This document shows, piece after piece, positions 18,411-38,468 of a stretch of DNA of 39,899 bases. Both the position numbers and the translations under genes were made by a program. Each line of letters begins with the position of its first letter. The stretch's first letter is position 1. The notes under the pieces are model-generated. The model saw only the letters and a program-made list of their open reading frames with translations. It was not told where the DNA came from and did no database searches. The DNA comes from an uncultured Gemmatimonadales bacterium (lineage in GTDB: Bacteria > Gemmatimonadota > Gemmatimonadetes > Gemmatimonadales > GWC2-71-9): NCBI GenBank assembly GCA_963821525.1, contig CAWGED010000009.1, positions 1 to 39,899 of the forward strand. Reading direction: 5' to 3'.

Positions 18411-18921
18411 GTGGGTCAATCCGGGTTGTTAGACTGTGATCTGGTCATGAAGGGCGGGATCACGAGCGGGATCGTTTACCCTGCCGCGATCCTCCGCCTC
18501 GAAGGATAAGTACCGTTTCCGCAACATCGGCGGGACTTCGGCCGGCGCCATGGCCGCGGCCTTGACCGCCGCGGCGGAATACGGGCGCCAATCTTTCAAG
18601 CAGAGCGGCCCCTGGCTGGAAGGCGGAAACGAAAGCCAGGGATTCGCCGGGCTCAAGAAGACTCGCGACGAGTTGTGCCAGCCGGGCCTGCTGCTCGGCC
18701 TCTTCCAACCGTCGCGCCCCACCCGCAGCCTCTTCCGCTTCCTCCTCTATCTGAAGACCGGACCGGTTCCACCCCGCTCGGTGCCACTGGGGTGGTTGTA
18801 TCCCTGCACCGGGCGCGCTCTGGAATGCGGAGCCCTGGTCTACGCCGTCGGGGTGATCTCGAGTATCGCCGCGGTCTCGGTGGTCCTGCACCGCTATCTC
18901 AAGCGGCGTGGGATGTCATGA
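18411..18921 (+). pseudogene. Frameshifted, truncated patatin-like phospholipase
   Basis: CDLVMKGGITSGIVYPAAI (Gly-rich loop) is in one frame and stops at 18507-18509. KYRFRNIGGTSAGAMAAA..AAAEYGR (GxSxG) is in the +1 frame, implying an extra base near 18501. There is no catalytic DGG half, and it ends overlapping the GMC gene. Confidence 0.75.
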
Positions 18922-20971
18922 CCCGCTCGCCGAGTGGAAGGCGCAGCGCCGCGTAACGAGCCAACGCCATCGTGGTGTACTGGATGTTCAGTGTGATGGC
19001 TGCCGGAAAGACGCTGGAATCCAGAATCCAGAGGTTATCGACGCCATGGACCTTGAGATTGCTGTCCACCACTCCGCGAGTCGGGTCCCGGTGGATCACG
19101 TTGCCGCCCTGCAGATGGGCGCTTTGGACCTTGACGTAGGTGGCCGGACTGAAACCCCGATAGTAGGCCGCGATCCGTTCCCGGTCGCTCCGGACATCGC
19201 CGCTCAAGGCGACCGAGTGTCCGTCGTACCGGCTGTCGAACAACTCCACCGCTCCGGCCTGCCGCATCGCCTCGGCACATTGCACCAGCCCCCACTCCAG
19301 CCGTGCCCAGTCCGAGGGACCCAGATCGAAGCGGATCTGGGGACTGCTCCAGGGAGTGAGCGGCGCATAGTCGATCGATCCGTACCCATCGCTCGAGAGG
19401 GTGGGGAACGACACGCCGTAATGGTTGTACTGGAGCGCCTTCTCCCGGAACCCGCTGCCCCACTGCGACAACATCATGCCCAGTACCGTGGGCGGGGCGA
19501 ATGCGGTCTCGATGATCATCCGCTGGGGCGGGATCTCGATGATGTAACCGATCTGGATTCCACGTCCCGCGTTCATCGGCTCGGTGAAGCGCCCGATGAC
19601 CGGGCTGGCGTAGTTGCAGCTGAAGCGCTGGCCCACCAGACGCCGGCGGCCATCGGCCGAGGTGAAGCCGCTCTTGAGGAGCAGCGCGCTGGACGCGAAC
19701 GCGCCGGCGGTGAGCAGGACCTTGTCAGGGCGCAGAGTGCGCTTGTGCCCGTCGCTTCCTTGCACCTCGACTCCGGCGATCCGGCGTGCGCCACCTTGTC
19801 CCTCCCAGAGCAAGCGGGTTGCGGTGGCCTTGGGGATCAGCATCACCCGATCGCTCTGCCGAAGTGCTTCCGGGAGCAGCGTGATGAACGGCGCGCGATG
19901 CGCGTCGTAGGGGCATCCCTGATTGCACTGCCCGCAGGAGATGCAGTCCTCCAGGTTGGCCTGCAGGAGTCCCGCGTAGGTGCTGCCGGGAACTTCACCG
20001 AATCCGCTGAACGCTCGCTTCGTTCCGGTGGTCAGAATTCGCTGATCAATAACACTGATGTGCAGCGGATCCCTCAGGTCATCGAACGCGCGGTCCAACC
20101 CGCTCCAATCGAGGTCGGCACCTTCCGAGCCCCAGCGCCAGTGCATGATGTCGGCCCAGGGCCCCTTGGGTTGCGGGCTCCCCGCGTTGTTCACCGTAGT
20201 GCCGCCGCCCACGCAGTGGCCCTGAATGAAGCCGATGCGCTGCGACTTCCCCGGCGTCGATCCCGAATTGACGTAGAGCTGGCTGAACCCATCGAGCGTG
20301 GTACGAGGGAAAGCCTCGTTGGTGTGAAGCGCCCCGGACTCGAGCAGGATGATTCGCGCCGCCCGACCTTCCGGCCGCGACACGAGAGCGTGGGCCGCCG
20401 CGATACCGGCGCCACCGGCCCCGATGATGAGAATTGTCTCCTCGCCGGGGAACCGCTCCGGCAGGCTGGCCAGGGACCCGGCACGCTCTTTCACCAGCTT
20501 CCCCGGCCCGGAGGGTTCGGTCGGTTCGACTTCCGGTCCCGACGGGGGCACCAGCGTTACGCCGTCAAAGACCGGAAAGGCACCCGGCCGGGCGCGATAG
20601 CCGATGCGCTCCCAGAACTCGGGCAGCTCGCAGAAGCTGCCGCTCACCATCGATTTGACCGTTGCCAGGACTCCCTGCGCATCCACCATCCAGCCCGGCG
20701 CCCTCCCGATGTTTTCCAGGAAGAGCCGGTCGAGATAGGTGCGTCGCCAGGCAAGCGGCCGTCCCGCGAACCTCAGCTTGGTCAAGAGTCCGCCCGGCAT
20801 TACCAGCAGCGCCAGGTGGAAGGTGAATCGCAGGCCGAAGGAAGAGTGATCGAGGAACTTGTCGAGCCGGTCAACGGCCTTGGCCGCCTGACCCAGCTCG
20901 TGATGCTCGAGGCCGAGTACCGCTTCGGCGAATGCGGTGAGGAAACGGCGTTCGATGGAAAGCATCGCCAT
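18899..20971 (-). CDS. GMC family oxidoreductase (FAD), long-chain alcohol oxidase/dehydrogenase-like
   Basis: Motifs IIGAGGAG, GHCVGGGTTVN, CISCGQCNQGCP, SAHLQGG and GVVDSNLKVHGVDNLWILDSSVFP. GGAGG RBS precedes the ATG at 20971. Confidence 0.88.
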   Translation of the reverse strand: MAMLSIERRFLTAFAEAVLGLEHHELGQAAKAVDRLDKFLDHSSFGLRFTFHLALLVMPGGLLTKLRFAGRPLAWRRTYLDRLFLENIGRAPGWMVDAQGVLATVKSMVSGSFCELPEFWERIGYRARPGAFPVFDGVTLVPPSGPEVEPTEPSGPGKLVKERAGSLASLPERFPGEETILIIGAGGAGIAAAHALVSRPEGRAARIILLESGALHTNEAFPRTTLDGFSQLYVNSGSTPGKSQRIGFIQGHCVGGGTTVNNAGSPQPKGPWADIMHWRWGSEGADLDWSGLDRAFDDLRDPLHISVIDQRILTTGTKRAFSGFGEVPGSTYAGLLQANLEDCISCGQCNQGCPYDAHRAPFITLLPEALRQSDRVMLIPKATATRLLWEGQGGARRIAGVEVQGSDGHKRTLRPDKVLLTAGAFASSALLLKSGFTSADGRRRLVGQRFSCNYASPVIGRFTEPMNAGRGIQIGYIIEIPPQRMIIETAFAPPTVLGMMLSQWGSGFREKALQYNHYGVSFPTLSSDGYGSIDYAPLTPWSSPQIRFDLGPSDWARLEWGLVQCAEAMRQAGAVELFDSRYDGHSVALSGDVRSDRERIAAYYRGFSPATYVKVQSAHLQGGNVIHRDPTRGVVDSNLKVHGVDNLWILDSSVFPAAITLNIQYTTMALARYAALRLPLGERVMTSHAA

Positions 20972-21051
20972 GGGGACCTCCGGGCACAGGATGGCGCACT
21001 CCATAGTGCGAATCCGTCCCCGGTCCCGCCAGTTGCATCATGGGGCACATC

Positions 21052-23925
21052 ATGACAGCCAGTCCCGCTTCCCGAGCCGTGACCCGTCTCGAAACGGTGC
21101 TCCGGATACTGGCCGGGGTCTTCGTTCTGGGCGCGCTGCTCTACCAGCTCGGACCCATCTGGTCTCGCACTGCCGGGTTCTTCCAGACCCTTCCCTTCGT
21201 TTCCAATTCAATAGTGAAAGTGAGCCTGCTGCTGGGCATTTGCCTCTATGCAGCGGGCGACCTGATCCGGCGGAAGGGGCTGGTGCTGATTCTGATCATC
21301 GCGCACGCGGTCTCCGTCGTGGCGATGCTGATCATCCTGTTCGTGGGAGACACGAGCCGGATCGTGGACCCGGGAATCGGGGGGCCGCAGCCGGTGAGCC
21401 GGGTGCTCTGGGGCGCCATCGCCCTCGATGGCGTGATCATGATCGTCCTCCTGCTGCTTTATCTCCCCGCCAATCGTGCCTTGTCGAGCGTTGCCTGGCC
21501 AACCGAGCCCTCCAGCTGGCTCACTCCGGCCGAGCAGTGGCTCCGCCGCCTCCTCATTCTCCTCACGGTGGTCTTCATCATCGGGGCGATCGGCTATGAG
21601 GCAGCACCGCTCCTCGGATTGGCACCCGACCTGGTTCGCGAGCTGCCGTTCGTCACCAACTCGGTCGTAAAAGTCTCCACGCTGGCGATGCTGTGCGGTT
21701 ACGTGGCGCAGGCCATGAGGCCGCGCATGGCGCTGGTAGGGCCGATTATCGCGGTGCACTTCGTCTCCGTCGTGGCACAGGCGATCTACCTGCTGCTGAT
21801 CCCCTCCTCGGACCTGGCCGTGGTCTACACCGTCGCCGGCCGCGCGATGCCGATGCAGCAGATCCTGATCGGTGCCATGGTGCTCGACGGCGTCATCGGG
21901 GTCCTGCTCTTCGCTCTCTACTACGCCGCCTGGACATCGCGGCTCCAGAGCGAATTCTTCCGCCCGCTCGAATTCCGCACCCTCACGGCACTCACCGAGG
22001 TGATGATCGCAGGGCACAACGAGGCGATCCCGCCTGAAGTAGCCGCCCGCAATGCGGACCAGGCGCTGGCCCGGGTTCGCACCGAACGAAAGGGCAGCTT
22101 CCGCATCGCGCTGGCAGTAATTCACTACTGGCCCCTCTTCTCGCTCCACCCGCCCCTGCCGGAGCTGCGGCCCGCGCTCCGGTCCCGTTTCATCCGCGAG
22201 CGCTTCACCCGCGACGCCGGGCGGCGCCAGAAATGGCGGCTGGTCCGCACCATGGTCCAGATCTTCCTCCGGGTCGGGCACCAGCTCTCGGTGCTCGGCT
22301 TCTACAACGACCCGAAGGTCCAATCGGCGATTCAATTCAAGCCGTTCACGGTGCGGGCGCGGGAAGCAGGACTTCCATTGCCGCCTCCCCAGCACCGGCC
22401 GCTCGCGGTCGAACGACCCTGGGACCGCAACGAGGAGATCCGCGAAACGGAGGTCTGCGTCATCGGCTCGGGGGCCGGCGGAGCCATCGCGGCCTATACC
22501 ATGGCGGAACGGGGTCACGAGGTGCTGCTCGTGGAGCGGGGCGAGCATGTGCACCCGTCGCTCTTTGTCGAGGACGAGCTGCGGCAGATCGGCCAGCTCT
22601 ACCAGCGGGGAATGCTGCAGATCTCGGAGGATTTCCGCTTCAACGTGCTGCAGGGGAATTGCGTCGGCGGTTCGACCACGATCAACAACGCGATCTGTTT
22701 CGCTCCTCCCGCCGACAAGATCGAGCGCTGGAACCGCAATGGCGCGGGACTCGACCAGGCCCAGCTCGAGCAGGCCACCGAATGGGTTCGCCGGTTCATG
22801 GAGGTGCGCTCGCTGGGCGACATCCGCCCCGGCGGGCATCATCCGGCCGCGAAAGTGATCGAGTCGGCGCTCGCTCGGATCGGGAACCAGGTCCGGCTCG
22901 CGATGCCGGAGCCCTTCGACGCGAACATCAGAGTCGGGCCCGACGGGTGCTACGGTTGCGGCAATTGCAACATCGGTTGCGCGTGGGACAAGAAGCTTTC
23001 CATGCTCGACCACACACTCCCGCTGGCCCAGGCGCATTTCCCCGGCCGCGTCACCATCCTCGCCGAGTGCGACGCGGAACGCTTCCGCAGCATGAGCGGG
23101 AAGCGGATGCACGCCTGGGAATTGCTGGCCCGCGGAACCGACGGCCGCCAGATCCGGATTCACGCGGACCGGTTCATCATCTCCGCCGGCACCATCGCCT
23201 CGAGCGCGCTTTTGCTCCGGAGCGGCATCTCGCTCGGCCGCCCGGTCGGCAAGGATCTCTCCTTCAACATGCTCACCCCGGTCTTCGCCGAGTTTCCGGA
23301 GCCTCCGCAGAACTCCTATGCCGGAATCCAGATGGGGCACTACGTCAGGCACGCCGACGACGCCTTCATCATCGAGACCTGGTTCAGTCCGCCGGTAGGG
23401 CTCGCGACCGCGATGGCGGGTTGGTTCGACGAGCACTACCGCAACATGCAGCGCTCCGGCTTGCTCGTGGCCTATGGCCTCGTGGTCGGCACCAGTGCCA
23501 AGGGACGCGCGTTCCTGTCTCCTCTGAACGGCGATGCGGCGTTTCGCTTCACGCCGCCTCCATCGGACATGGACCGGCTGGGTCGCGGGCTGGAGGCGCT
23601 TGCCACCGTCCTGTTCGAGGCGGGTGCGCGACGGGTCCTGCTCAACACCTGGGACCACGGCAACATCGCGAGTCCGGCGGACATCGCGCGGATTCGCACT
23701 CTGACCAAAGACCCGGAGTTCATCACCCTCGCGAGCTCGCATCCCCAGGGGGGCAACGCGATCAATCGCGATCCGCATCACGGAGTCGTGGATGAATCAT
23801 TCAGGGTTCACGGCTATGACAACCTGTACGTCTGCGACGCCAGCGTCTTCCCCGGCAGCGTGCAGGTCAACCCGCAGATGACGGTGATGTCTCTCGCCCG
23901 CTACGCGGCGGCCCGGATCGAATAA
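21052..23925 (+). CDS. GMC family oxidoreductase fused to an N-terminal ~8-TM membrane domain
   Basis: About 290 hydrophobic N-terminal residues, then VIGSGAGG, GNCVGGSTTIN, CYGCGNCNIGC, SHPQGG and VVDESFRVHGYDNLYVCDASVFP..VQVNPQ. Start is 21040 or 21052. Confidence 0.88.
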   Translation: MTASPASRAVTRLETVLRILAGVFVLGALLYQLGPIWSRTAGFFQTLPFVSNSIVKVSLLLGICLYAAGDLIRRKGLVLILIIAHAVSVVAMLIILFVGDTSRIVDPGIGGPQPVSRVLWGAIALDGVIMIVLLLLYLPANRALSSVAWPTEPSSWLTPAEQWLRRLLILLTVVFIIGAIGYEAAPLLGLAPDLVRELPFVTNSVVKVSTLAMLCGYVAQAMRPRMALVGPIIAVHFVSVVAQAIYLLLIPSSDLAVVYTVAGRAMPMQQILIGAMVLDGVIGVLLFALYYAAWTSRLQSEFFRPLEFRTLTALTEVMIAGHNEAIPPEVAARNADQALARVRTERKGSFRIALAVIHYWPLFSLHPPLPELRPALRSRFIRERFTRDAGRRQKWRLVRTMVQIFLRVGHQLSVLGFYNDPKVQSAIQFKPFTVRAREAGLPLPPPQHRPLAVERPWDRNEEIRETEVCVIGSGAGGAIAAYTMAERGHEVLLVERGEHVHPSLFVEDELRQIGQLYQRGMLQISEDFRFNVLQGNCVGGSTTINNAICFAPPADKIERWNRNGAGLDQAQLEQATEWVRRFMEVRSLGDIRPGGHHPAAKVIESALARIGNQVRLAMPEPFDANIRVGPDGCYGCGNCNIGCAWDKKLSMLDHTLPLAQAHFPGRVTILAECDAERFRSMSGKRMHAWELLARGTDGRQIRIHADRFIISAGTIASSALLLRSGISLGRPVGKDLSFNMLTPVFAEFPEPPQNSYAGIQMGHYVRHADDAFIIETWFSPPVGLATAMAGWFDEHYRNMQRSGLLVAYGLVVGTSAKGRAFLSPLNGDAAFRFTPPPSDMDRLGRGLEALATVLFEAGARRVLLNTWDHGNIASPADIARIRTLTKDPEFITLASSHPQGGNAINRDPHHGVVDESFRVHGYDNLYVCDASVFPGSVQVNPQMTVMSLARYAAARIE

Positions 23926-23969: not shown

Positions 23970-25343
23970 ATGCTGGTCGTCATCAGCGATATCCATCTCA
24001 CGGACCTTTCCACCGCCCACAACGTCCACGCCACGGCGTTCGACCTGATGTGCAAGGAGATCGCGACGGCGGCGCAGGCCAAGGACGCGGTCGAGCTTCA
24101 TGTGGTGCTGCTGGGAGACATCTTCGATCTCGTTCGCACCGATTTCTGGCATCGGACCACGACACCGGACCAGCGTCCCTGGGGTGGCGATCTCGATCCC
24201 GAGACCGGCATGAACCGCAACACCGCGCTCATTCAGGCCCAATTCGCCACGGTGCTGGCCGGCGTGCTCGCCACTCCCGAGGCGAAGGCGCTGATCGCGG
24301 TGCTGAACGGACTCTCGGCCGTCACCAAGCTGCCGGCCAAACTCACCTACGTCGTCGGAAACCACGACCGGGTTTTCAACAACTTCCCCGCCCTGCAACA
24401 ACAGGTGCGCGCCGTTCTGCCGGGTATCGAGTTCGCCAACCTGTTCAAGGCGGATGAGTACGGCGTACTCGCCCGGCACGGCCACGAGTGGGACGAGAAC
24501 TGCCATGGTTTCACCTTCTACAACAAGGTGCTCCGACCGGACGGCGCGCCCCAACTCGGCCGCTTCGACGCCCGTAGCTACCAGATCATGGCGATCGGAG
24601 AGGTGGTGACCGCGGAGCTGATGTCGGGCCTGGTGCACTTCGCCCGCGCGGCGCAGCCGGGCAACGTCCCCGATTTCCCCCAGTTCATCGAGGCGTTCAA
24701 GGACATCAACAACATCCGGCCCACTCTCGACGTGTTCCCCTGGCTCGAGTGGTTCGCCCGCGATCAGCTCCCCGGCTACAAGCAGGCACTGCACCAGGCG
24801 ATGAAGCACTCGCTCGATGGGGTGCTGCAGTCCTCGCTCGCCAAAAAGTGGGACCGTCTGGTGACCGACCTTCTTCTCCAGGGCGATCTCACCGACCGGC
24901 TGGCCCTGCTCAAGAATCACGTGCTGGGTAATTCCTTCGATGAATTTCGCGGGCGAGTCAACTCGCTGAGCAAGCTGCAGGGATTGGTGGATAAGGTCAC
25001 CCCGGACAAGGATGACTGCGCCGAGGGCGCAGAGGAGGAGGAAATCTGGAGATTCTGGACGGCGAACCCGCCCGGCCCGACTCAGTACGTGCTGTACGGT
25101 CACACCCACAAAGCCCGCCATATCGCTTTCGGCGCCGCACTCGATGGAAGGGTGCGGATGTACATCAACACCGGCACCCTCCTGCGGCTCATCCAGCGTA
25201 CTGCCTCGCGCGATGGTTTCTCGACAGCCTCCCAGATGACGATGGCCTTCTTCTACAAGACCGAGGAGGACAAGACCGCGCGGGCCGATCGTGGCCCCAC
25301 CCTGGACCTCTGGAACGGGATCCGGCGCAAGACCTACGTCTGA
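23970..25343 (+). CDS. Calcineurin-like metallophosphoesterase family protein
   Basis: Motifs SDIH, GDIFD, GNHD, HGH, GHTH and YINTG. Confidence 0.85.
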   Translation: MLVVISDIHLTDLSTAHNVHATAFDLMCKEIATAAQAKDAVELHVVLLGDIFDLVRTDFWHRTTTPDQRPWGGDLDPETGMNRNTALIQAQFATVLAGVLATPEAKALIAVLNGLSAVTKLPAKLTYVVGNHDRVFNNFPALQQQVRAVLPGIEFANLFKADEYGVLARHGHEWDENCHGFTFYNKVLRPDGAPQLGRFDARSYQIMAIGEVVTAELMSGLVHFARAAQPGNVPDFPQFIEAFKDINNIRPTLDVFPWLEWFARDQLPGYKQALHQAMKHSLDGVLQSSLAKKWDRLVTDLLLQGDLTDRLALLKNHVLGNSFDEFRGRVNSLSKLQGLVDKVTPDKDDCAEGAEEEEIWRFWTANPPGPTQYVLYGHTHKARHIAFGAALDGRVRMYINTGTLLRLIQRTASRDGFSTASQMTMAFFYKTEEDKTARADRGPTLDLWNGIRRKTYV

Positions 25344-25367: not shown

Positions 25368-25871
25368 ATGACGCCTCCATTCACACCCGGTCGCATCGCC
25401 CTGATCCTGCTCTTCTACGCCGCGCTGTATGTCGTGATCAGCATCAGCGACCGAACGCTGACCAAGGACGAGCGCAAGACCTTCCTCCTGCTCTGCGGTG
25501 CGGGATTCAGCATCGCGTTCGTCACGAATTTCCTGCTGTTCAAGATCGGCGCGATGACCTTCCTGCCGTGGATCAACAACTTCCTCCACAGCTTCTTCTG
25601 GATTGGCCTGGGGTTCCCCTGGCTCTACTTCGCGACCCGGGGCCGTTCTCCTCTCGTGGTGTTCATCACGTTCACCACGCTGAGCCTGGTCGTGAAATAC
25701 ATCGAGCAACTCCTGTTCGGGACCTGGGACGGTCCCAATTTCCTCCACATCATCCCCGGAAACCTCGGCTACATCCTCGGCTGGTCGCTGGTGGACGGCT
25801 GTCTCCCCTTCGTCATGTCCATCGGACTGAAGCTGCTCAGCCGGTTTGTTCCCGGACTCGTGGTTGAATAG
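25368..25871 (+). CDS. Hypothetical integral membrane protein (~5 TM)
   Basis: GAGGA RBS, strongly hydrophobic 167 aa, codon usage like its neighbours. Confidence 0.75.
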   Translation: MTPPFTPGRIALILLFYAALYVVISISDRTLTKDERKTFLLLCGAGFSIAFVTNFLLFKIGAMTFLPWINNFLHSFFWIGLGFPWLYFATRGRSPLVVFITFTTLSLVVKYIEQLLFGTWDGPNFLHIIPGNLGYILGWSLVDGCLPFVMSIGLKLLSRFVPGLVVE

Positions 25872-26077: not shown

Positions 26078-29000
26078 ATGGACAATCGCGCCCTAGGTCT
26101 CGGCTTCGTGGCGGCCGCCGCGGTCGCGGTGGCTTCGATCGCCCGCCCCAGCGCGCCGCGTCCCGGACCGGCGGATTCCGCCAGCGTCGCTCAGGCCACG
26201 AAAGAGACCGGACCGGCCGACGCGCCCTTCGAGCGAGGTGAGGATCTGCTCGCCGGCTTCTTCGGTGCGGCTCCCACCGTCAGCGACAGCTTCTCACTCG
26301 ACGTTCTGATCGCCTGCGTCCCCGATCCCTACGACTCCCATCTCGACTGGTCGTTCGACGGGGCGCTGGAAACCATCCGCCGCGCCTTCGAGACCGCCGG
26401 CTACGTGACCGACCGCTTCTGGCTCCCGGGCCAGCGCGACAGCGTGCGGCGAGCCGGTCACGGGCGAGTCCCTCTTCGCGAGGTGCGGCCCGGGGTCGTG
26501 CTGTTCCGGAGCAGCAACTCGGGTGACCGCCGGCTGCACTTGCTCTATCTGATTCACGAGCTGCCCACCCGCGGCATCTACAAGGAGGCGCTGAGTACCG
26601 CGCTGGAGGAGCGCCGCCTGCTGCTAGGCCCTGGAAAGCTGCCGCTCCGGGCGGAACGCGCCGGGCCGATCCGCATCATCGGCCCGAATTTCTCCGGCTC
26701 CGCGCTGTCCCTGCAGTTGGCGCTTAAGAGCTGGCTCGCCCGGCACCCCGAAGACTCGGTTGAGATGCTGAGCGGGACGGCGACCAGCAGGGACAACCTC
26801 GCGACGCTGGACCTCCCGACACTGCGCATGCACTTCAGGGCCACGATCAACGCCGACGACCAGTTGAGTGGGTCGATGAAGGTCACGATGAATCGGCTGG
26901 GACTCAGCGATTCCCAGGTCGCGCTGCTGCGGGAATCCTCGACCCAATACGGGCAGGGACTCATCGCCGATTCCAGCGACTTTCTCATCGTCCCTTTTCC
27001 GATGAGCATCTCGAGCCTGCGCAGCGAGTACCAGCGGGTTCCATCGGCGGAGGAGGCGGCGCAGGCCCTGCCCGGTGGTGAGACGCCCCGGCTCCCGCTC
27101 GACCTGCTCGATCCAGCCCGCCCCAAAGAGGACTTTCCGGTCACCTCGCGACTCTCGCCCCTGGCCCTGGATCTGATGCTTGACGACCTGGCGCGAACGC
27201 TCAATCGCCACCGGATCCGGATGGTAGGCCTGCTGGCGACCGACGTGCGGGACAAGCTGTTCCTGGGGGAGGAGCTGCGGAAACGGATGCCCGACGTGCA
27301 GTTCTTTACCTATGAGAGCAACGTGCTGTATTTGCGCTCGGACAAGAATCTCGCCCTTCGTGGCATGCTGGTGTTCGCGACCTATCCACTCATTCTCGAC
27401 AACCAGTGGTTCACGGCTGACGCGGATCAAAAGCAGCGCTTCGCCTTCAGCAGCGACGGAGTGCAAGGGACCTACAACGCCACCCTCATGCAGCTCGGCT
27501 ACGAGAAGGCGGTCCTCGACTACCGGCCAACCAGGAAATACCGGGAGGACAGAGATCCGCAGCCGGGAGACACCCTGCCTCGAGATTCCTTGTTGCAAAC
27601 GCGGTTGAGGCCGCCAGTGTGGCTTTCCACGGTTGGCAACAAGACCTTCCTTCCCATTCGCATCGACACGGTTTCGGATACCAGCTACCTTGCCGCCCCC
27701 TGCAAGGTTCGAACTCAGTGTCCCGCGGTGCCGAAGAAGTACCCGTCCCTCAATCTCCCGTTCTTGCCATTGGCGGCGATAATGCTCGCCGGTTTCGCTC
27801 TGTTCATTCTTGCCGTCGGCAACATCAGGCTCGATCTCCAGCGCCGATCGCATGCCCGAACGGGTACCAGCTGGGAGTATGACCTTCGGCCAATCGCGGA
27901 CCAGCTGGCCGAAAGTTCTCTGCGTCTGCATGACCGGTTTTACGGGCTTCTCAGGGTCGTCGCGTTCTTCTGCATACTGCTCGCCACCTGTGCGCCGGTG
28001 CTCCGGCTCGTGTTCCGAACCAACAGCGATGTCTCCCTCAAGGTCTTGGGAGCGCTGATCACGATTGCCGGTGTGGCTGGTTTGACCGCGCTCCTGAGCG
28101 GGATCATCTCGGTACTGGCACTCGCGGTACAGCTGGGCCGGCAGGGACTCAAGTTTTTCTGGAGCGGCCCCTGGCGTATTCCGAGTGAACCATGGGCCTG
28201 GCGAGTCGACGTGCTGGCACGAATCGCCACGGCGGTGTTCGGGGTGGTCTATCTGAGTCTCTCGATCGGCTTCGTCACCGACGTCATGAATCTGGCGACG
28301 CCCGACCCGGGGCGATGGTGGCTCTTCTTTCGCCGCGCGGTCGAGATCGACAGCATGGTTTCGCCGGTGCTCCCGCTCGTGCTGGGGGGGCTCGGCCTCG
28401 CAGTGTGGTGTACCTGGCACCTCCGCCGAATCGCACTGCTGCAGCAACGGACCATCTTCGAGAGCGTCTGTGAAACCGAGTTGAGCTCCCCACGAAAACC
28501 TCGCACGACGTTCCGCACCGCCCTCCGGGATGACCTGCGCCGCTCCGCCGTGGATATCCGAACCATCCGGCTTCGACTGTTTCGGGTGGCTCCCAGCAAC
28601 TGGGCCGTGGGCCTCATTGTCGCCTTCCTCTGCCTCGGTGTCTGGGTCGGCCCTCAGTTCGGGCGATCGTTGGAAGCGCTCATGAGCGACGCGCCGGACG
28701 GGGTACCCATGTTCGACAAGCTCTTCCGGCTCATGGTCTTCGCCATGCTGCTCGCCACGTCATGGGGCGCCTTCCGCCTGGCAGTTGTGTGGCTGGGTCT
28801 GAGGAAGTGCCTGGAAGGATTCGCCCGGATGCCGATCGTTACCGCGTTCGATCGCCTGCCTCCGCGCCTGGCTCGACTGACTCAGCTCTCGCTGCCGGGC
28901 CCCGCGTCGGGAACCGCGATAGGCGCCGTGGCCGATCTGCAATGGCTCCACTTGCAGGGAATCCATCAGGCCAAGAAAGAGGAGTTTGCCAAGGAGCTGG

Positions 29001-29704
29001 GGCCGGATCGTGCCGAGCTGACGGAAGTCGTCGCCGATTTGATGAAGGAGCCTGCGGCACAGGAGCTCGCACTGACCTCGAGGGGCCGGCGGGCGCTGGT
29101 CGAGCGCCTGGGCACGCTGCACGACGTCCTGCGTGAGCTCTGGCGTCTCGAGCCAATGAAGGCCGACGTCAACGCGTTGATCGAGGGGCTGAACAAGGAA
29201 TTCGAGAAACCGGTGCCTCGCGGCGGTGAAGAGGCCTCCACCGCATTGTTGATTCGGCGAGGATTCGCCGGTCCGGTCCGGCTATGGGTGCGCGCCGCGG
29301 AGGAGTACGCTGGAACCCGGATGGTGGAGTATGTCGAGTGGGTTACCCGTCACCTCCGCGAGCTTGCGCTGTTCATGCTGCTCTCGCTTCTGCTGGCCAC
29401 ACTGCTGCTCGCCAGCTACCCCTACCCTCCGCAGAGCCTGCTGCGGCTGATCCTCCTCGTGGTTCTCGGTGGGACCGTCGGGAGCCTCATCTTCGTCCTG
29501 ATCCAGATGAACCGCGACGAAGTATTGAGCCGGATCGACCGGACCGAGCCGGGGAAGGTGACCTGGAATCTGAGATTCGTGATGAACCTGCTGACCTTCG
29601 GGGCCCTGCCGCTGCTTACCCTGCTGAGCTCCGAGTTCCCCGAGCTGCGGAAATTCCTGTTTGCGTGGGCTGAGCCGATTTTGAAGATGCTTGCTAAACA
29701 GTAA
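26078..29704 (+). CDS. Large hypothetical membrane protein: periplasmic-binding-protein type I-like ectodomain plus ~10 TM helices
   Basis: 1208-aa ORF with a signal/anchor, then ~540 soluble residues containing IIGPNFSGS and VALLRESSTQYGQG, then ~7 TM segments, a soluble region and 3 C-terminal TM segments. The fold call is inference. Confidence 0.8.
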   Translation: MDNRALGLGFVAAAAVAVASIARPSAPRPGPADSASVAQATKETGPADAPFERGEDLLAGFFGAAPTVSDSFSLDVLIACVPDPYDSHLDWSFDGALETIRRAFETAGYVTDRFWLPGQRDSVRRAGHGRVPLREVRPGVVLFRSSNSGDRRLHLLYLIHELPTRGIYKEALSTALEERRLLLGPGKLPLRAERAGPIRIIGPNFSGSALSLQLALKSWLARHPEDSVEMLSGTATSRDNLATLDLPTLRMHFRATINADDQLSGSMKVTMNRLGLSDSQVALLRESSTQYGQGLIADSSDFLIVPFPMSISSLRSEYQRVPSAEEAAQALPGGETPRLPLDLLDPARPKEDFPVTSRLSPLALDLMLDDLARTLNRHRIRMVGLLATDVRDKLFLGEELRKRMPDVQFFTYESNVLYLRSDKNLALRGMLVFATYPLILDNQWFTADADQKQRFAFSSDGVQGTYNATLMQLGYEKAVLDYRPTRKYREDRDPQPGDTLPRDSLLQTRLRPPVWLSTVGNKTFLPIRIDTVSDTSYLAAPCKVRTQCPAVPKKYPSLNLPFLPLAAIMLAGFALFILAVGNIRLDLQRRSHARTGTSWEYDLRPIADQLAESSLRLHDRFYGLLRVVAFFCILLATCAPVLRLVFRTNSDVSLKVLGALITIAGVAGLTALLSGIISVLALAVQLGRQGLKFFWSGPWRIPSEPWAWRVDVLARIATAVFGVVYLSLSIGFVTDVMNLATPDPGRWWLFFRRAVEIDSMVSPVLPLVLGGLGLAVWCTWHLRRIALLQQRTIFESVCETELSSPRKPRTTFRTALRDDLRRSAVDIRTIRLRLFRVAPSNWAVGLIVAFLCLGVWVGPQFGRSLEALMSDAPDGVPMFDKLFRLMVFAMLLATSWGAFRLAVVWLGLRKCLEGFARMPIVTAFDRLPPRLARLTQLSLPGPASGTAIGAVADLQWLHLQGIHQAKKEEFAKELGPDRAELTEVVADLMKEPAAQELALTSRGRRALVERLGTLHDVLRELWRLEPMKADVNALIEGLNKEFEKPVPRGGEEASTALLIRRGFAGPVRLWVRAAEEYAGTRMVEYVEWVTRHLRELALFMLLSLLLATLLLASYPYPPQSLLRLILLVVLGGTVGSLIFVLIQMNRDEVLSRIDRTEPGKVTWNLRFVMNLLTFGALPLLTLLSSEFPELRKFLFAWAEPILKMLAKQ

Positions 29705-29707
29705 GAC

Positions 29708-29764
29708 AAAGTACCGAGTACCGAGTTAGGTCCTAGGTACTCGGTACTAGGTACTCGGTACTTT
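29708..29764. repeat. Inverted 7-mer arrays (AGTACCG)n / (GGTACTC)n between convergent genes, possible bidirectional terminator
   Basis: aaagtaccgagtacc (29708-29722) is the exact reverse complement of ggtactcggtacttt (29750-29764). Confidence 0.85.
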
Positions 29765-29765
29765 A

Positions 29766-31139
29766 TTAGTACCGTCCCAAATAATTCTCCACCTCCCACC
29801 TCGTCACCTGCGTGTTGTACCGCAGAACCTCCTCCCGCTTCGCTTCGAGGAACCGCTCGGTCAGGTGCTCCCCCAGGGCCGCCTTGATCACGTCGTCCTT
29901 CTCGAAGCGATCCAGCGCCTCGTGCAGGTCCCGGGGCAGGTCGTCGATCTGGTACTTCCGGCGGTCGCGATAGCTCATCCGGAAGATGTTGCGATTAACC
30001 GGCTCCCGGCATTCGAGCTTCTGCACCACGCCGTCGAGCCCGGCCGCGAACTGCACCGCGAGAGACAAATAGGGATTGGCGGAAGGGTCCGGCATCCGAA
30101 GCTCACAGCGGGTGCCCACTCCGCGCCGCTCAGGGATCCGGACCAGCGGGGAACGGTTCCGCATGGACCAGGCGACGTTGACCGGCGCCTCGTAGCCCGG
30201 CACCAGGCGCTTGTAGCTGTTGATGAGCGGATTGGTGATGGCGCAGAACCCCCTGGCGTGCTGCAGCAGTCCCTCCACGTAGTTCAGCGCTACCGCCGAA
30301 AGCTGGTGGTCGGTCTTCGGGTCGAAGAAGGCGTTGTCCTTGCCGCGGAAGAGAGACTGGTGGGTGTGCATGCCGCTCCCGTTCTGGCCCATGATCGGCT
30401 TGGGCATGAAGGAAGCGACGAAGCCGTGCCGGTTCGCCACGTTCCGCACCACGAACCGGAAGGTGGCGATGTTGTCCGCCGTGGTGAGCGCGTCCGCATA
30501 CTTGAAGTCCACCTCGTGCTGGCCCGGCGCCACCTCGTGGTGCGCGGCCTCGACCTCGAAGCCCATCAATTCGAGATCGTTCACGATCATCCGCCGGATT
30601 TCCTCACCCCGGTCTACCGGCGTCAGATCGAAGTACGAGGCGTCGTCGTGGGTCGTCGTGGTCGGATTGTCAGAGGCATCCTTCTCGAAGAGAAAGAACT
30701 CCACCTCGCAGCCCGCCATCAGCGTGTAGCCCAGATCCTCCGCCTTGCCGATCGTGCGCTTGAGCGTCAGCCGGGGACATCCCGCAAAGGCCTCGTGGTC
30801 CGGGGTGTAGATGTCGCAGATGAGGCGCCCTACCCGCCCGCCCTCGTCGTCCGACGGAAGCAGCCGGAAAGTCGGCAGGTCAGGGACGAGGAGCATATCG
30901 CTCTCCTCGATCCGCACGAACCCCTCGATGGACGAGCCATCGAACATGATCTCCCCGTCCAGTGCCTTCTCGAACTGGCTCTTCGGCACCTCGACATTCT
31001 TGTTGATCCCCAGGATGTCGGTGAACTGGAGCCGGAGAAAGTCCACCTGGAACTCGGTGGCCAGCTTCAGCACCTCGGCCTTGGAGACCCGGTCGAAGTG
31101 GCGGGGGAAGTCGGACGCTGGCGGACGCGATGGGGGCAT
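29766..31139 (-). CDS. glnA: Glutamine synthetase type I (GSI-alpha-like)
   Basis: Motifs FTDILG, FDGSSIEGFVRIEESDM, EVEFF, HHEVAPGQHE, FMPKP..GQNGSGMH, NSYKRLVPGYEAP, NRSPLVRIP and ELRMPDPSANPYL. Confidence 0.96.
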   Translation of the reverse strand: MPPSRPPASDFPRHFDRVSKAEVLKLATEFQVDFLRLQFTDILGINKNVEVPKSQFEKALDGEIMFDGSSIEGFVRIEESDMLLVPDLPTFRLLPSDDEGGRVGRLICDIYTPDHEAFAGCPRLTLKRTIGKAEDLGYTLMAGCEVEFFLFEKDASDNPTTTTHDDASYFDLTPVDRGEEIRRMIVNDLELMGFEVEAAHHEVAPGQHEVDFKYADALTTADNIATFRFVVRNVANRHGFVASFMPKPIMGQNGSGMHTHQSLFRGKDNAFFDPKTDHQLSAVALNYVEGLLQHARGFCAITNPLINSYKRLVPGYEAPVNVAWSMRNRSPLVRIPERRGVGTRCELRMPDPSANPYLSLAVQFAAGLDGVVQKLECREPVNRNIFRMSYRDRRKYQIDDLPRDLHEALDRFEKDDVIKAALGEHLTERFLEAKREEVLRYNTQVTRWEVENYLGRY

Positions 31140-31162
31140 AGGGAGAGAAAAGTAAGGAGGAC

Positions 31163-31234
31163 GGTACCGAGTACCGAGCTGAGAGCTAAGGGCTGATGGC
31201 TGACAGCTCCACTCAGTCCTCAGTCCTCAGTCCT
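31163..31234 (+). repeat. Composite 7-mer arrays: (GTACCGA)2, (GCTGANN)n, (CTCAGTC)3
   Basis: ggtaccgagtaccgag, gctgagagctaagggctgatggctgacagct and ctcagtcctcagtcctcagtcct, in the gap upstream of glnA. Confidence 0.8.
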
Positions 31235-34590: not shown

Positions 34591-34962
34591 ATGAGCAAGC
34601 TGGTGCTGGTCATCGAAGACGATCCCGATCAGCGGCGCTTCCTGGAACGGATGCTGGGCGCGAGCGGCTATCGCGTGGTTACCGTGGCGGACGGCGAAGC
34701 CGGATTGGCCGCCGCCGCGGCTCAGACTCCAGACGTGGTGGTGCTTGACGTGATGATGCCCCGCCTCAACGGGTACCAGACCTGCCGCAAACTCAAGAAG
34801 GACCCGCTCACCGCCCGGTGCCCGGTGATCATGCTCACCGCGAAAGATCAGGCCGCCGACGAGTACTGGGCTACCGAAGTCGGGGCCGACGCCTTTCTCA
34901 GTAAGCCCATTGACCTGCCCATCCTCCTGGAGACGCTAGGACGGCTCACGGAGTCTTCGTGA
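34591..34962 (+). CDS. Single-domain response regulator (CheY-like receiver)
   Basis: Motifs VIEDD, VVLDVMMP, MLTAK and FLSKP. Confidence 0.93.
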   Translation: MSKLVLVIEDDPDQRRFLERMLGASGYRVVTVADGEAGLAAAAAQTPDVVVLDVMMPRLNGYQTCRKLKKDPLTARCPVIMLTAKDQAADEYWATEVGADAFLSKPIDLPILLETLGRLTESS

Positions 34963-37900
34963 ACTGGCTGACCATCATCCTGGGTTTTACCGCCACGGTC
35001 ACCGTGGTCGGTTTCCTGGCCATTCTCACCTGGTTGCTGTATACCGGCCACCTGGCGAGGGCAGAGCGTCGTCTGGCCGAGCGGAAGGGGATTTACCGCG
35101 AAGTGGTGACCGGGCTGGCCACACGGGAACGAGCCCTGCTCGAACCCGAGATCCACCAGCTTCGCACTCTCCGCGATTTCGAGGCGTTGGAGGCGGTGCT
35201 CGAGGAACAGGCCCGCAGCTCGACCGAACGTCCCGCCTGGTTGCTCGACGCGTACGATCGTCTCGGCCTGGTCGAGAACTACGCCACCCGGCTCAGAAAA
35301 GCCGAGAAATGGCGGGAGCGCGCCTTCGCCGCTGAGCTGCTGGGACGGGTCGGCAACGCCAAAGCAGTCCCTGCCCTGCTCGAGACCATTCAGGCCACTC
35401 GCACCGAGGATGCCGACGTCCGGGAAATCGCGCTGCGCGCGCTCGCCCGGATCAAGGACCCGCGCGCGGTCGTACCCTTGGTCGAGGCCCTGAGAAAGGC
35501 TGAGGTCTGGCTGGCCCCTCGGATCGCCGACATCCTGGGCCGCCACGGCGAGGTGGTCGTGGACCCGATGATCGCTTTTCTCACCGAGACCACTCGCCAT
35601 CCCGCCCGGGCCTGGGCCGCCAACATCCTCGGGGAACTCCGCGCCCCTCGGGCATTCACGGTACTCGTGCAGGCGCTGGGAGATCTGGATGACGAGGTTC
35701 GGGCCAAGGCGGCCGGGGCGCTGGGGCGTTTGGGAGACCGCCGCGCCATTACCTACCTGCTCGACACCCTGCTCACCGACCCCGCGCCATTCGTCCGCGC
35801 CCGGATCGCCGGCGCCCTGGGTCAATTCAACGAACCTGAAGTCATCGAGCGGCTGGTACGCGCCCTCGGCGATCCGGCCTGGTGGGTCAGGATGCGCAGT
35901 GTCGAAGCGCTGGAGCAGATCGGGCCGGTTGCCGAATCGCCCCTCCTCCTGGCGCTGGACGATCCGGATCCGGAAATCCGTATTCGTGCTGCGGTCGCAC
36001 TCGAGCGCCTCGGGCTCCCGGCCCGGCTCATCAGTCGGATTGAAAGCGGAGACATGGGACAGGACGCACTCGGCACTCTCACCAAGTTTGCGGTGGCCGG
36101 TGCCAGGGAGATGCTCGCCGAGCACCTCCACCACCCTTCGGCCAAGGTCCGAGGTGCAGTCATCGACGCCGTTCGGGTAGCACAGCGCCGCGATCTTGGC
36201 GCCGAGCTTATCGAATGTGCTCAGCAGGATCCGGAGCCGGCAGTCCGAGCCTCCGCACTCGAAGCCCTGCACGCTCTCGGAATCCGTGAGTCGGTGCCCG
36301 CGGCCCTCGATTGCCTGGGCGATGCCGATCCGAAGGTTCGCGCCCAAGCCATGTCTCTTCTGGGAGACCTTGGCGGTCAGGACCTCGCCGACGTCATTGG
36401 GCCTCGCTCGTCTGATCCTCAGCCGCTGGTTCGCGCGGCCGCAGCCCGGGCGCTTGGACTGGTTCGGGCGCGAGACGCGACCGAAGAGTTCACTCGCCTG
36501 CTGCGAGACCCCGAGCCGCAGGTGCGCGCCGCTGCCGCCGACGGCGTCGCCGCTGCCAACGCCCGAGTGGCTGCGCCCGTTCTCACCGATTTGCTGGGAG
36601 ACAACGACCCCGAGGTCCGTCTAGCGGTTGCCCGGGCACTGGGTGCTCTGGGAGACGCCGGCGCAGTGAAGCCTCTGCTCCGTACTTTCCGCGACGCCGA
36701 TCCCGCACTGCGCCTGACCCTGATTCAGAGCATTGCGCGACTCGACCCGGCGGCGCTGGAAGAGCTGATCGATCTCCTCCTGGAAGCGAAGGACGCGATA
36801 AGCCGAGTCGGAGTGGTCGAGACGATCGGGCACTTAAAGTCCGAACACTCATTCGATCTCCTGGAGCGGCTCTGGCGCGACGAGGCGCCTGCCGTTCGCG
36901 TCGCCGTCGCCAATGTGCTCTCCAGGTTTGACGTGGAACGCGCGGCGCCGCTCCTGGCAAAGGGGCTCAGCGATCCCGAATCCCTGGTGCGAGCCCGCGC
37001 GGTGGACGGTCTGGTCCGGCTCGGACGCAACAACCTGGCAGGGGAGATCGTGAAACTCCTCGCCAATGATCCCTCTCCCCTGGTCCGCGAACGGGCCGCT
37101 CTCGCCGCCGGGATCTTTCGTCACTCCGGAGCGGAGATGGCACTGCTCAATGCCTGCCGCTCCGATCAGCCGCTGAACGTTCGCGCCGCTGCCGCGCTGG
37201 CCATTGGCGCCTACGACCAGGAGAGCATGGTGACCCGGGTGCTGGAAATGGCAGACGAGGCCGAGCTGCGCGACATGATTCGCGAGCGCCTGAAGGATGA
37301 CTCGGAGTATCGCCTGCTCGGTCTAAGGCTACGCGAAGCGCGACACGTGGAGTTGCGCGCGCTTGCGTCGACTTCCCGCGAGCAGATGGAAGCCACCCTG
37401 GCCGAAGGAATGCGCGGCGTGCTGAGCGCCGAGCAGCGAATACGCCTCGTCGCGGGACTCAAGGCCTTCCAGGGCGAGCGTAGCCGCAGCGCGCTGCTTC
37501 AGGTGATTCGGGGAGACCCAAGCCCAGAGGTCCGCGCCGCCGCCCTCGCCGCCGTGGGAGAAATGCTGGAGGAGGAAGAGCTGTTCCTCACGGCGAGTCG
37601 CGCCCTGGCGGATCCTCACCGCGATGTGCGCCACGCGGCGATCGCCTTGTTCAAGCGGATCGGCCCCGAGAAGGCGCTGCCGGCATTGGTCCGCCAGCTC
37701 AAAGGTGATGATGACCCGGTCACCCTGCAGGCCGTGGCCGACCGTGCCGAAGCCGATTTCGATGCCTTCGTGGATCTGGCACTCGGCGTAGCGCTCGATG
37801 GACAGGAAGCCATCATGGTGGCGCGGGTCGCGCGCTTCATGCACCACCCCGGCCTGGCCCGTGTGCTCGGCGTGATTGCCCGGAGCGAGACTCCGGATGT

Positions 37901-38468
37901 CCGCGACGCCGTCGCCCGGGCCTGGGCCGGGCGTCCCGACATGATTGACCAGGCGGCCCTCGAGAGCATGACGGCCGACCCCACGGTCTCGGTACGCCGC
38001 GCCGCCGTCCAGGCCTGGCGCGGAGCCCGGCAGTGGGATCGGCTGGCGCTGATGCTTAACGATCCCGATCCCGGAATCCGTCAGGATGTGGCGCTGGCCT
38101 TCCTCGACGCTCCCGATGTGGCGCCACTCGCGGCACTGGAGCAGGATCCCGACGAAATGGTGCGCGCCATGCTCTTCGCGGTGCGTCTGCTCCACGGCGA
38201 TACCGGCGAGATCTCCGGACCCTCGGTCTCCCGGCCGGCCGCGGCAACCGCGATCCGTCGTGCGCGCCCCACCGACTGGCTCCGGGAAACGGCGCGGGGC
38301 GCTCTCGAAGGGAAGGAACGGGCGCCCGCGGCACTCGCCCTCGCGGTTCTGGATGATGAAGTGGCCTATCACGTCATGCGCGCCGATCCGCTGCGGACCA
38401 TCCGCGACCAGGTGACCCGGATGCTCGCCCGCTGGCGGGAGTCGCCCGACGCCCGGCGCCAGGCATGA
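34959..38468 (+). CDS. Membrane-anchored HEAT-repeat protein (1169 aa)
   Basis: N-terminal TM helix followed by many D(P)xxxVRxxAAxALG repeats. GTGA overlap with the receiver gene. Confidence 0.9.
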   Translation: MNWLTIILGFTATVTVVGFLAILTWLLYTGHLARAERRLAERKGIYREVVTGLATRERALLEPEIHQLRTLRDFEALEAVLEEQARSSTERPAWLLDAYDRLGLVENYATRLRKAEKWRERAFAAELLGRVGNAKAVPALLETIQATRTEDADVREIALRALARIKDPRAVVPLVEALRKAEVWLAPRIADILGRHGEVVVDPMIAFLTETTRHPARAWAANILGELRAPRAFTVLVQALGDLDDEVRAKAAGALGRLGDRRAITYLLDTLLTDPAPFVRARIAGALGQFNEPEVIERLVRALGDPAWWVRMRSVEALEQIGPVAESPLLLALDDPDPEIRIRAAVALERLGLPARLISRIESGDMGQDALGTLTKFAVAGAREMLAEHLHHPSAKVRGAVIDAVRVAQRRDLGAELIECAQQDPEPAVRASALEALHALGIRESVPAALDCLGDADPKVRAQAMSLLGDLGGQDLADVIGPRSSDPQPLVRAAAARALGLVRARDATEEFTRLLRDPEPQVRAAAADGVAAANARVAAPVLTDLLGDNDPEVRLAVARALGALGDAGAVKPLLRTFRDADPALRLTLIQSIARLDPAALEELIDLLLEAKDAISRVGVVETIGHLKSEHSFDLLERLWRDEAPAVRVAVANVLSRFDVERAAPLLAKGLSDPESLVRARAVDGLVRLGRNNLAGEIVKLLANDPSPLVRERAALAAGIFRHSGAEMALLNACRSDQPLNVRAAAALAIGAYDQESMVTRVLEMADEAELRDMIRERLKDDSEYRLLGLRLREARHVELRALASTSREQMEATLAEGMRGVLSAEQRIRLVAGLKAFQGERSRSALLQVIRGDPSPEVRAAALAAVGEMLEEEELFLTASRALADPHRDVRHAAIALFKRIGPEKALPALVRQLKGDDDPVTLQAVADRAEADFDAFVDLALGVALDGQEAIMVARVARFMHHPGLARVLGVIARSETPDVRDAVARAWAGRPDMIDQAALESMTADPTVSVRRAAVQAWRGARQWDRLALMLNDPDPGIRQDVALAFLDAPDVAPLAALEQDPDEMVRAMLFAVRLLHGDTGEISGPSVSRPAAATAIRRARPTDWLRETARGALEGKERAPAALALAVLDDEVAYHVMRADPLRTIRDQVTRMLARWRESPDARRQA

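Follow-up and report, generated by a model that had tools for sequence, protein, structure and literature searches.

An undescribed bacterial protein family that joins a predicted Venus flytrap to a predicted ten-helix membrane module

What does a bacterium do with a protein that appears to hold a Venus-flytrap domain outside the cell and some ten helices in its membrane? The question is raised by a 1208-amino-acid open reading frame (ORF) at positions 26078..29704 (forward strand) of a 39,899-nucleotide stretch of DNA from an uncultured Gemmatimonadales bacterium (assembly GCA_963821525.1, contig CAWGED010000009.1, positions 1 to 39,899; hereafter the window). An initial annotation, made without database searches, had described an exported domain, about seven hydrophobic helices, a soluble region and three further helices, and had proposed an uncharacterized sensor or ligand-gated transporter. 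Here, we find that the gene belongs to a large undescribed family in which the design of flytrap plus ten helices is fixed, that the outer half of its product is predicted with high confidence to have the type I binding-protein fold, and that the product likely acts like a flytrap receptor or a ligand-gated channel.

The ORF has a single terminal stop and contains all of the motifs that the annotation had singled out: IIGPNFSGS at residue 200, SGTATS at 232, VALLRESSTQYG at 281, CKVRTQC at 542, SYPYPPQ at 1113 and MNRDEVLSRI at 1144, the last followed by TEPGK, which we read from the sequence at residues 1156–1160. Because they are conserved across phyla, these motifs are more than chance resemblances. 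A Kyte-Doolittle scan gave a hydrophobic N-terminal stretch at residues 4–22, seven segments within 557–905 and three within 1092–1185. Compared with four close relatives, the ratio of nonsynonymous to synonymous substitution rates (dN/dS, from our own counting script) was 0.13–0.15 for the whole gene and 0.02–0.05 for the C-terminal module (residues 1066–1208), which is under the strongest constraint in the gene; these values show that the gene is maintained. The ORF is thus real and under purifying selection. We found no sigma-70-like promoter for the gene. Contigs of relatives from RNA runs (four of the seven listed) span the gene and its neighbors equally evenly and, with DNA carry-over possible, are no evidence of transcription.

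Ectodomain fold and ligand pocket

We modeled residues 50–545 with AlphaFold2, using 109 sequences, and obtained a confident flytrap (predicted local distance difference test 90.9, predicted template modeling score 0.92). When the model was compared with 48,161 representative chains using VIA-align, the best match was LivK (3td9; Z 24.7, root-mean-square deviation 3.5 Å, 300 residues aligned over model range 25–484), followed by other LIV-type binding proteins (4evq and 4n0q, both Z 23.8; LivJ 4gnr, 23.4; AmiC 1pea, 22.7). Receptors came lower, among them AtGLR3.4 (Z 18.6), T1R (18.4), mGlu (18.3), GluK5 (18.2) and GABA-B (16.8), as well as the natriuretic-type receptors NPR-C (16.4) and GC-A (14.2). 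A second structure comparison left the ranking order unchanged. Foldseek placed mGlu8 at the top (E 1.4e-8). Using hhalign, the family profile matched 30 PF13458 members from relatives with a score of 40.7 (P 2e-4), with the motifs of the annotation in register, against 12.6–19.6 for 16 reversed or block-shuffled controls; this profile-profile match is independent support for the fold. The top covariation pairs in the ectodomain, calculated with our own mean-field script, resemble strand pairings. From the model and these comparisons we assign the ectodomain (residues ~71–536, 26288..27685, predicted to be extracytoplasmic) with high confidence to the type I periplasmic-binding (LIVBP) Venus flytraps, as had been supposed from its motifs.

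The LIV-type binding proteins (HAAT family, PF13458), which include LivK, LivJ and AmiC, have in common with the ectodomain not only the fold but a motif register of GP-x-x-S, S-x-x-T, F/Y-x-x-x-x-x-x-D and YG. The ectodomain is nevertheless ~100 residues longer than these proteins, 8–15% identical to them and undetected by Pfam, and it is fused to a ten-helix membrane module, whereas theirs serves a separate ATP-binding-cassette (ABC) permease.

Does this flytrap have a pocket? PMC2680970 gives Ser165, Thr188, Asp208, Tyr236 and Asp318 as the main amino-acid-recognition residues of mGlu1. By motif, these correspond to S206, T236, D260, Y291 and E413 of the window protein; the link to mGlu1 was made by motif rather than by superposition, and the register to LIV-type proteins comes from the hhalign and motif alignment. 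In a 150-row homolog alignment, which was not chosen by the ATDVRD pattern of the genome scan described below, the five residues are conserved in 141, 135, 118, 133 and 100 rows, respectively. All five positions (S; T/S; D/E; Y/F; D/E) are kept in 88 of the 150 rows and at least four in 120, and a second alignment gave 67 and 99 of 109. The least sure of the five is E413, where the column holds E in 100 rows and G in 30 and the hhalign register is about two residues off. Several charged residues are more conserved still, with E286 and D392 present in all 150 rows, D389 and E161 in 149, D94 in 145 and R391 in 142. With the five positions kept and E286, D389, D392, E161 and D94 near-invariant, the pocket appears to be functional and fairly acidic. 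The candidate ligand residues, together with E286 and D389-x-R391-D392, lie within 26693..27316. From these residues, the pocket would be intact for an alpha-amino acid, and the extra invariant acidic residues would suit a cationic ligand. That the flytrap binds a ligand is a well-supported prediction.

The membrane half and its relation to known families

Hydropathy over the 150 homologs confirmed the layout described at the outset. An N-terminal hydrophobic stretch is present in 118 homologs (in the window protein at residues 4–22, 26087..26143, as a predicted signal peptide or uncleaved anchor), the middle block has seven helices in 90 and six in 47, the soluble insert has a median length of 175 residues, and the C-terminal block has three helices in 138. 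Neither an N-terminal lipobox (2/237) nor a Tat motif (0/237) is a family trait. In the window protein, seven predicted membrane helices (residues ~560–904, 27755..28789) are followed by a predicted cytoplasmic helical insert with conserved ends and a variable middle (~905–1092, 28790..29353) and by the C-terminal module, whose three predicted helices carry SYPxxP on the outer and MNRDxxLSRIxxTxPG on the inner side (29354..29704). Lys and Arg are enriched at the ends of loops 1, 3, 5, 7 and 9 (6.2, 4.0, 6.9, 3.1 and 3.0) relative to the short even loops 2, 6 and 8 (0.8, 1.3 and 0.3); the value for loop 4 is 2.2. This bias fits an ectodomain outside and an insert inside, in a topology assigned from hydropathy and Lys/Arg bias alone.

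The annotation had also drawn attention to a cysteine pair between the ectodomain and the helices. The pair is present in the window protein (C542/C548, 27701..27721) but is lineage-specific, with two or more linker cysteines in 30 of the 150 rows, and it is not supported as an equivalent of a cysteine-rich linker. The seven-helix block has a conserved R753-A-x-x-x-x-S-G-x-S-P-x-x-P, predicted to lie on its outer side. The conserved helix-end residues would be R753, S762, P763, P766, Y1114, P1115 and P1118 on the outside and W780, R784, P839, R900, W905, R1146, S1151, G1159 and W1163 on the inside. Helix 1 resembles helix 5 (score 24.9 over 32 columns, controls 11.7–14.3), which may indicate a four-helix repeat or merely a generic helix followed by basic residues. 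Covariation in the membrane region is too weak to infer packing: eight pairs lie at or above the shuffled maximum (z 7.9), 22 pairs exceed z 6 compared with 24 after shuffling, and one of the top pairs, 907–1116, conflicts with the hydropathy topology.

Searches of the membrane half against known families returned little. PDB sequence searches with the protein and four profiles found nothing significant except designed helical bundles, and in Pfam scans of 66 membrane-region sequences no family matched more than six, at E 0.003 or weaker. Enzyme motifs, as well as H-box, GGDEF and Walker A patterns, occur in none of the 224 homologs of at least 1000 residues. The topology of helices 6–9 fits the bestrophin pattern of two helices, a cytoplasmic helical insert and two helices; an hhalign comparison with only five bestrophin members scored 18.0, with controls at 13–19. 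The bacterial 7TMR-DISM proteins (PF07695) similarly place an extracellular domain before seven helices, but they have a different ectodomain fold and a downstream signaling domain that the family lacks, and 30 of their members scored 13–15 by hhalign, at the level of controls (11–18), in a test that distant membrane homology can escape.

Other proteins couple a flytrap to the membrane by different means. In ionotropic glutamate receptors (iGluRs) and plant GLRs, the amino-terminal domain has the same fold as the ectodomain (AtGLR3.4, GluK5), and the fusion of a binding-protein domain to a membrane module in iGluRs, GLRs and GluR0 is the model for the mechanism that we propose below. iGluRs and GluR0 gate via a type II ligand domain, which is wrapped around a pore resembling that of K channels; in the family described here, we found no type II ligand domain or pore motif. 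VKR kinases, natriuretic-peptide receptor cyclases and the BvgS/EvgS sensor kinases also link an extracytoplasmic flytrap to the membrane. BvgS and EvgS do so with a single membrane helix plus a kinase. VKR and the ANF receptor have a single membrane helix plus a kinase or cyclase, as described in PMC2680970. In contrast, members of the family have ten predicted helices but lack a catalytic domain, and Pfam found no fused HisKA/HATPase, GGDEF, cyclase or MCP output domain in the query or in 30 long or distant homologs. We do not file the protein as a class C G-protein-coupled receptor (GPCR), because it lacks a cysteine-rich linker and has three extra helices, as an iGluR, because it lacks a pore motif, or as a sensor kinase, because it lacks an output domain.

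Family, distribution and gene neighborhood

A phmmer search with residues 1–1200 returned 4007 clusters (50% identity) at E <= 0.001, many of which will be fragments, and 1370 at E <= 1e-30. The named members are all labeled 'hypothetical protein'. The query itself has no Pfam, NCBIfam, PADLOC, PHROGs or PDB-sequence match, none of 51 word-search matches contains a Pfam domain, and the ESM Atlas gave only unnamed 'hypothetical' clusters, at 0.84–0.85, with no named match for the ectodomain. The annotation's description of an uncharacterized protein is borne out, as no characterized transporter or enzyme family was matched. Our literature search found no paper on the family, with a mention in a supplement, a table or a subscription-only paper possible.

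The architecture is strikingly constant. Among the 224 proteins of at least 1000 residues, the ectodomain is present in all and the C-terminal module in 221, with at most 10 residues after it, and the most distant homologs retain the complete architecture, this module included. A Pfam scan of 30 long or distant members gave no match at E 0.001 and two weak ones at 0.005–0.007. As the annotation had stated, no enzymatic output domain is recognizable in the query or in the full-length homologs. There are variants in size and number: Longimicrobiaceae carry tandem pairs of full-length paralogs (L010 2223-10173, L023 7045-15095), three gammaproteobacterial proteins of 1350–1545 residues (L066, L057, L065) have big insertions within the ectodomain without a Pfam match, a 426-residue form is an internal deletion of a full-length gene, and at six loci (L007, L017, L040, L042, L046, L069) the gene lies in pieces at separate places.

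To place the gene in genomes, we collected 78 loci from the best 80 of 101 matches in a pattern scan, which selected by the ATDVRD motif and is biased towards it. The closest relatives in this set are from Gemmatimonadales (95–76% identity), and further hosts are Planctomycetota, Acidobacteriota, Myxococcales, one Spirochaetota and many Gammaproteobacteria. Cultured strains that carry the gene include Lysobacter soli (WP_147298531.1), Dyella sp., Tahibacter harae and Pseudomarimonas. Within its own genus the gene was found in all four other genomes, compared with 0/56 other sampled relatives, and within its phylum in 5/301 genomes (four candidates scored per genome), or 7/301 by a C-terminal-module profile. 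It was found in 6/19 genomes of the genus of Lysobacter soli and in 6/251 of its order, two of these marginal. The gene is thus rare and patchy. A quick tree of 74 ectodomains showed strong clustering by phylum (8 changes, compared with a shuffled mean of 36.9), with exceptions such as four Planctomycetota amid Gemmatimonadota. Plasmid and phage collections held no match to the protein, and a viral fold library gave just two binding-protein-like matches at E <= 0.001. Given the patchy spread we considered an anti-phage role and set it aside, as there was no PADLOC match and no defense-island context.

Does another gene travel with this one? All-against-all clustering of the 78 loci revealed no conserved neighbor, with no tested family at more than eight loci. 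Varied genes were also seen when 95 of the 128 called upstream genes and 85 of the 129 downstream ones were scanned with Pfam. The orientation of the nearest neighbors is mixed. Loosely recurring neighbors are GMC oxidoreductases (8 loci), metallophosphoesterases (6), patatins (5), FAD oxidases (3) and papain-like proteins (3), each in two or three lineages. One acidobacterial locus (L027 3832-18927) has a same-strand run of metallopeptidase, membrane patatin, flytrap gene, FAD oxidase, GMC oxidoreductase, LCAT-like and metallophosphoesterase genes.

Upstream of the flytrap gene, the window holds a divergent pair of GMC oxidoreductase genes (18899-21004, reverse strand; 21040-23925, forward strand), the second of which has a hydrophobic N-terminal region of ~300 residues, without a Pfam match, fused to the enzyme. 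A weak metallophosphoesterase-like gene (23970-25343, forward) and a gene for an unannotated 167-residue membrane protein (25368-25871, forward) follow, both conserved among close kin only. An obligatory operon with these upstream GMC, phosphoesterase and 167-residue genes was considered and rejected, since a second copy of the locus carries a 3.5-kb insertion and the 167-residue gene occurs at four of the 78 loci, all close kin. This second copy lies on another contig of the same assembly, where window positions 39-34608 are repeated (C4, 370184-415727) at 93–94% identity, with a gene copy that is 95% identical; the repeat probably reflects two closely related strains that ended up in one bin, not a duplication. 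Its ~3.5 kb of extra DNA (L001 12852-16414), between the 167-residue gene and the flytrap gene, encodes a LysM/M15 peptidase and two unannotated proteins, and the segment is also found in L002 and L004 and missing from the window, L003 and L005. Downstream, a glutamine-synthetase-family gene occupies 29766-31139 (reverse); some relatives lack it, as is seen from two RNA-run contigs (X2, X4) that join 29760 to 31212. Further on, a 1169-residue HEAT-repeat protein with 14 HEAT_2 stretches is encoded at 34959-38468 (forward).

A possible ligand-gated pore and its rivals

We tentatively prefer the reading that an amino-acid-like ligand closes the predicted flytrap and thereby gates a self-contained pore of ten predicted helices. 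On closing, the flytrap would exert a pull on helix 1 as well as the conserved loops of the outer side (RAxxxxSGxSP, SYPxxP), this pull would move the highly constrained C-terminal three-helix module and the cytoplasmic insert, and a path for ions or small solutes would open, probably in an oligomer. We infer the output step, from the pull on the helices to the open path, only by elimination. A gated pore is favored because there is no catalytic domain and no linked partner, the gene is alone and patchily spread, and the tightest constraint falls on a small terminal membrane module. With a little more reserve, we suggest that the family, with its thousands of clusters, may be an unrecognized class of ligand-gated membrane proteins in bacteria. 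In such a class, the type I flytrap would bind an amino acid and directly gate a ten-helix module without known relative, and no other gene would be needed.

Several observations weigh against a gated pore or parts of it. The conserved polar residues lie mainly at helix ends, with few in helix cores, the membrane helices are just weakly amphipathic, and the MNRDxxLSRI helix, with a mean hydrophobicity of -0.29, carries too much charge for a classical pore helix. Among the 224 homologs, SYTAxL, for the SYTANLAAF gate motif of iGluRs and GluR0, occurs in none and TxG[YF]G, for their K-channel-like pore loop, in three. Neighborhood analysis would miss a partner whose gene lies elsewhere in the genome. 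The structural neighbors of the ectodomain also bind aromatic acids (hydroxybenzoate), amides, urea and fatty acids, so that the ligand cannot be read from the fold alone. Finally, one Gemmatimonadales genome encodes a 487-residue membrane-only homolog (P0332; L159 2956-4419, reverse strand), a singleton cluster on a long contig with unrelated genes upstream, which may be either a relic or a natural form; as its flytrap and first helix are missing, it counts against any claim that the two halves are always fused.

Some of these observations would suit a receptor that works through a partner, which we consider somewhat unlikely. Here, closure of the flytrap would rearrange the helix bundle and the insert, which would bind a kinase, cyclase, GTPase or protease from another locus, making the protein class C GPCR-like without being one. 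The conserved residues predicted on the cytoplasmic surface (R831, P839, R900, W905, P919, W1022, E1075, R1146, S1151 and G1159) argue for it, as do the scarcity of polar residues within helices and the lack of a pore motif, and eukaryotic type I flytraps mostly serve receptors, according to PMC2680970. However, no partner gene travels with the flytrap gene, and the persistence of the lone gene in distant phyla is harder to explain if a specific partner is needed.

The ectodomain's closest folds, the solute-binding proteins of importers, raise a different and less probable idea: that the flytrap passes an amino acid or similar solute to a ten-helix secondary carrier of an unrecognized family. 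Fused transporters of this sort, such as ABC SBP-permease fusions and TAXI-TRAP, have the membrane domain of a known carrier family. The number of helices, ten, fits a carrier, the pocket appears intact, and the similarity of helices 1 and 5 hints at internal repetition. We regard such an importer as unlikely, given that no transporter family consistently matches the 66 membrane-region sequences and that no 5+5 repeat of helices was detected. Genomes with the gene also retain ordinary LIV-type binding proteins, with four matches in its own genome. Neither a catabolic gene nor an ABC ATPase gene, as would be linked in a binding-protein-fused ABC transporter, is a conserved neighbor at the 78 loci.

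Less probable again is a regulated membrane enzyme or scaffold, for example one that works on lipids or the envelope and has the flytrap for its regulator or tether. It draws on the loose recurrence of lipid- and envelope-related neighbors (patatin, GMC, metallophosphoesterase, FAD oxidase) and on the acidobacterial same-strand run. The neighbor counts, however, include close kin and amount to two or three lineages each, and the membrane half lacks a strongly conserved catalytic His/Asp/Cys/Ser cluster.

The most far-reaching possibility is a genuine prokaryotic kinship with class C GPCRs (mGlu, GABA-B, CaSR, T1R), in which helices 1–7 of the protein would form the class C seven-helix fold and the insert and last three helices a built-in transducer that replaces the G protein. 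The order of flytrap, short linker and seven helices with the N-terminus outside is that of class C receptors, whose ectodomains match the model at Z 14–18; Foldseek ranks mGlu receptors first, and the five mGlu1 amino-acid residues appear to be kept, by motif. An ancestor of this kind has been proposed in print (PMC2670285, PMC8687355). However, VIA-align ranks bacterial binding proteins (Z 20–25) over mGlu and taste receptors (Z 16–18), and class C receptors end in a cytoplasmic tail after helix 7, whereas 138 of 150 homologs have three helices after the insert. The family has no conserved cysteines or cysteine-rich domain, a linker that is absent in GABA-B as well (PMC2670285); PF00003 has no match in the genome at E 10, and an FxPKxY-type helix-7 motif occurs in 0/224 homologs. 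GPCRs do appear among weak profile matches of the membrane half (best E 0.057), but these are class A, non-significant, typical of hydrophobic profiles and outscored by designed helical bundles. We judge this the least probable of the readings, and the annotation's warning that the comparison with GPCRs is one of architecture only still holds.

A type I flytrap fused to a multi-helix membrane domain is the design of eukaryotic class C GPCRs, and the family described here shows the same outward design in a fusion that occurs naturally in bacteria. The fusion of a bacterial binding protein to a seven-helix protein has been proposed as the origin of class C receptors (PMC2670285, PMC8687355, PMC13466386), and the accessible parts of these papers name no living bacterial example of such an ancestor. 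If helices 1–7 have the class C fold, the family would represent the prokaryotic form proposed as that ancestor. Because it is present in cultured strains (Lysobacter soli, Dyella sp., Tahibacter harae), the family is testable. The ectodomain offers a new source of ligand-binding modules for biosensors, and a structure of the membrane half would tell whether it has a new fold, of a channel or a receptor, belongs unrecognized to a known carrier family or is related to GPCRs.

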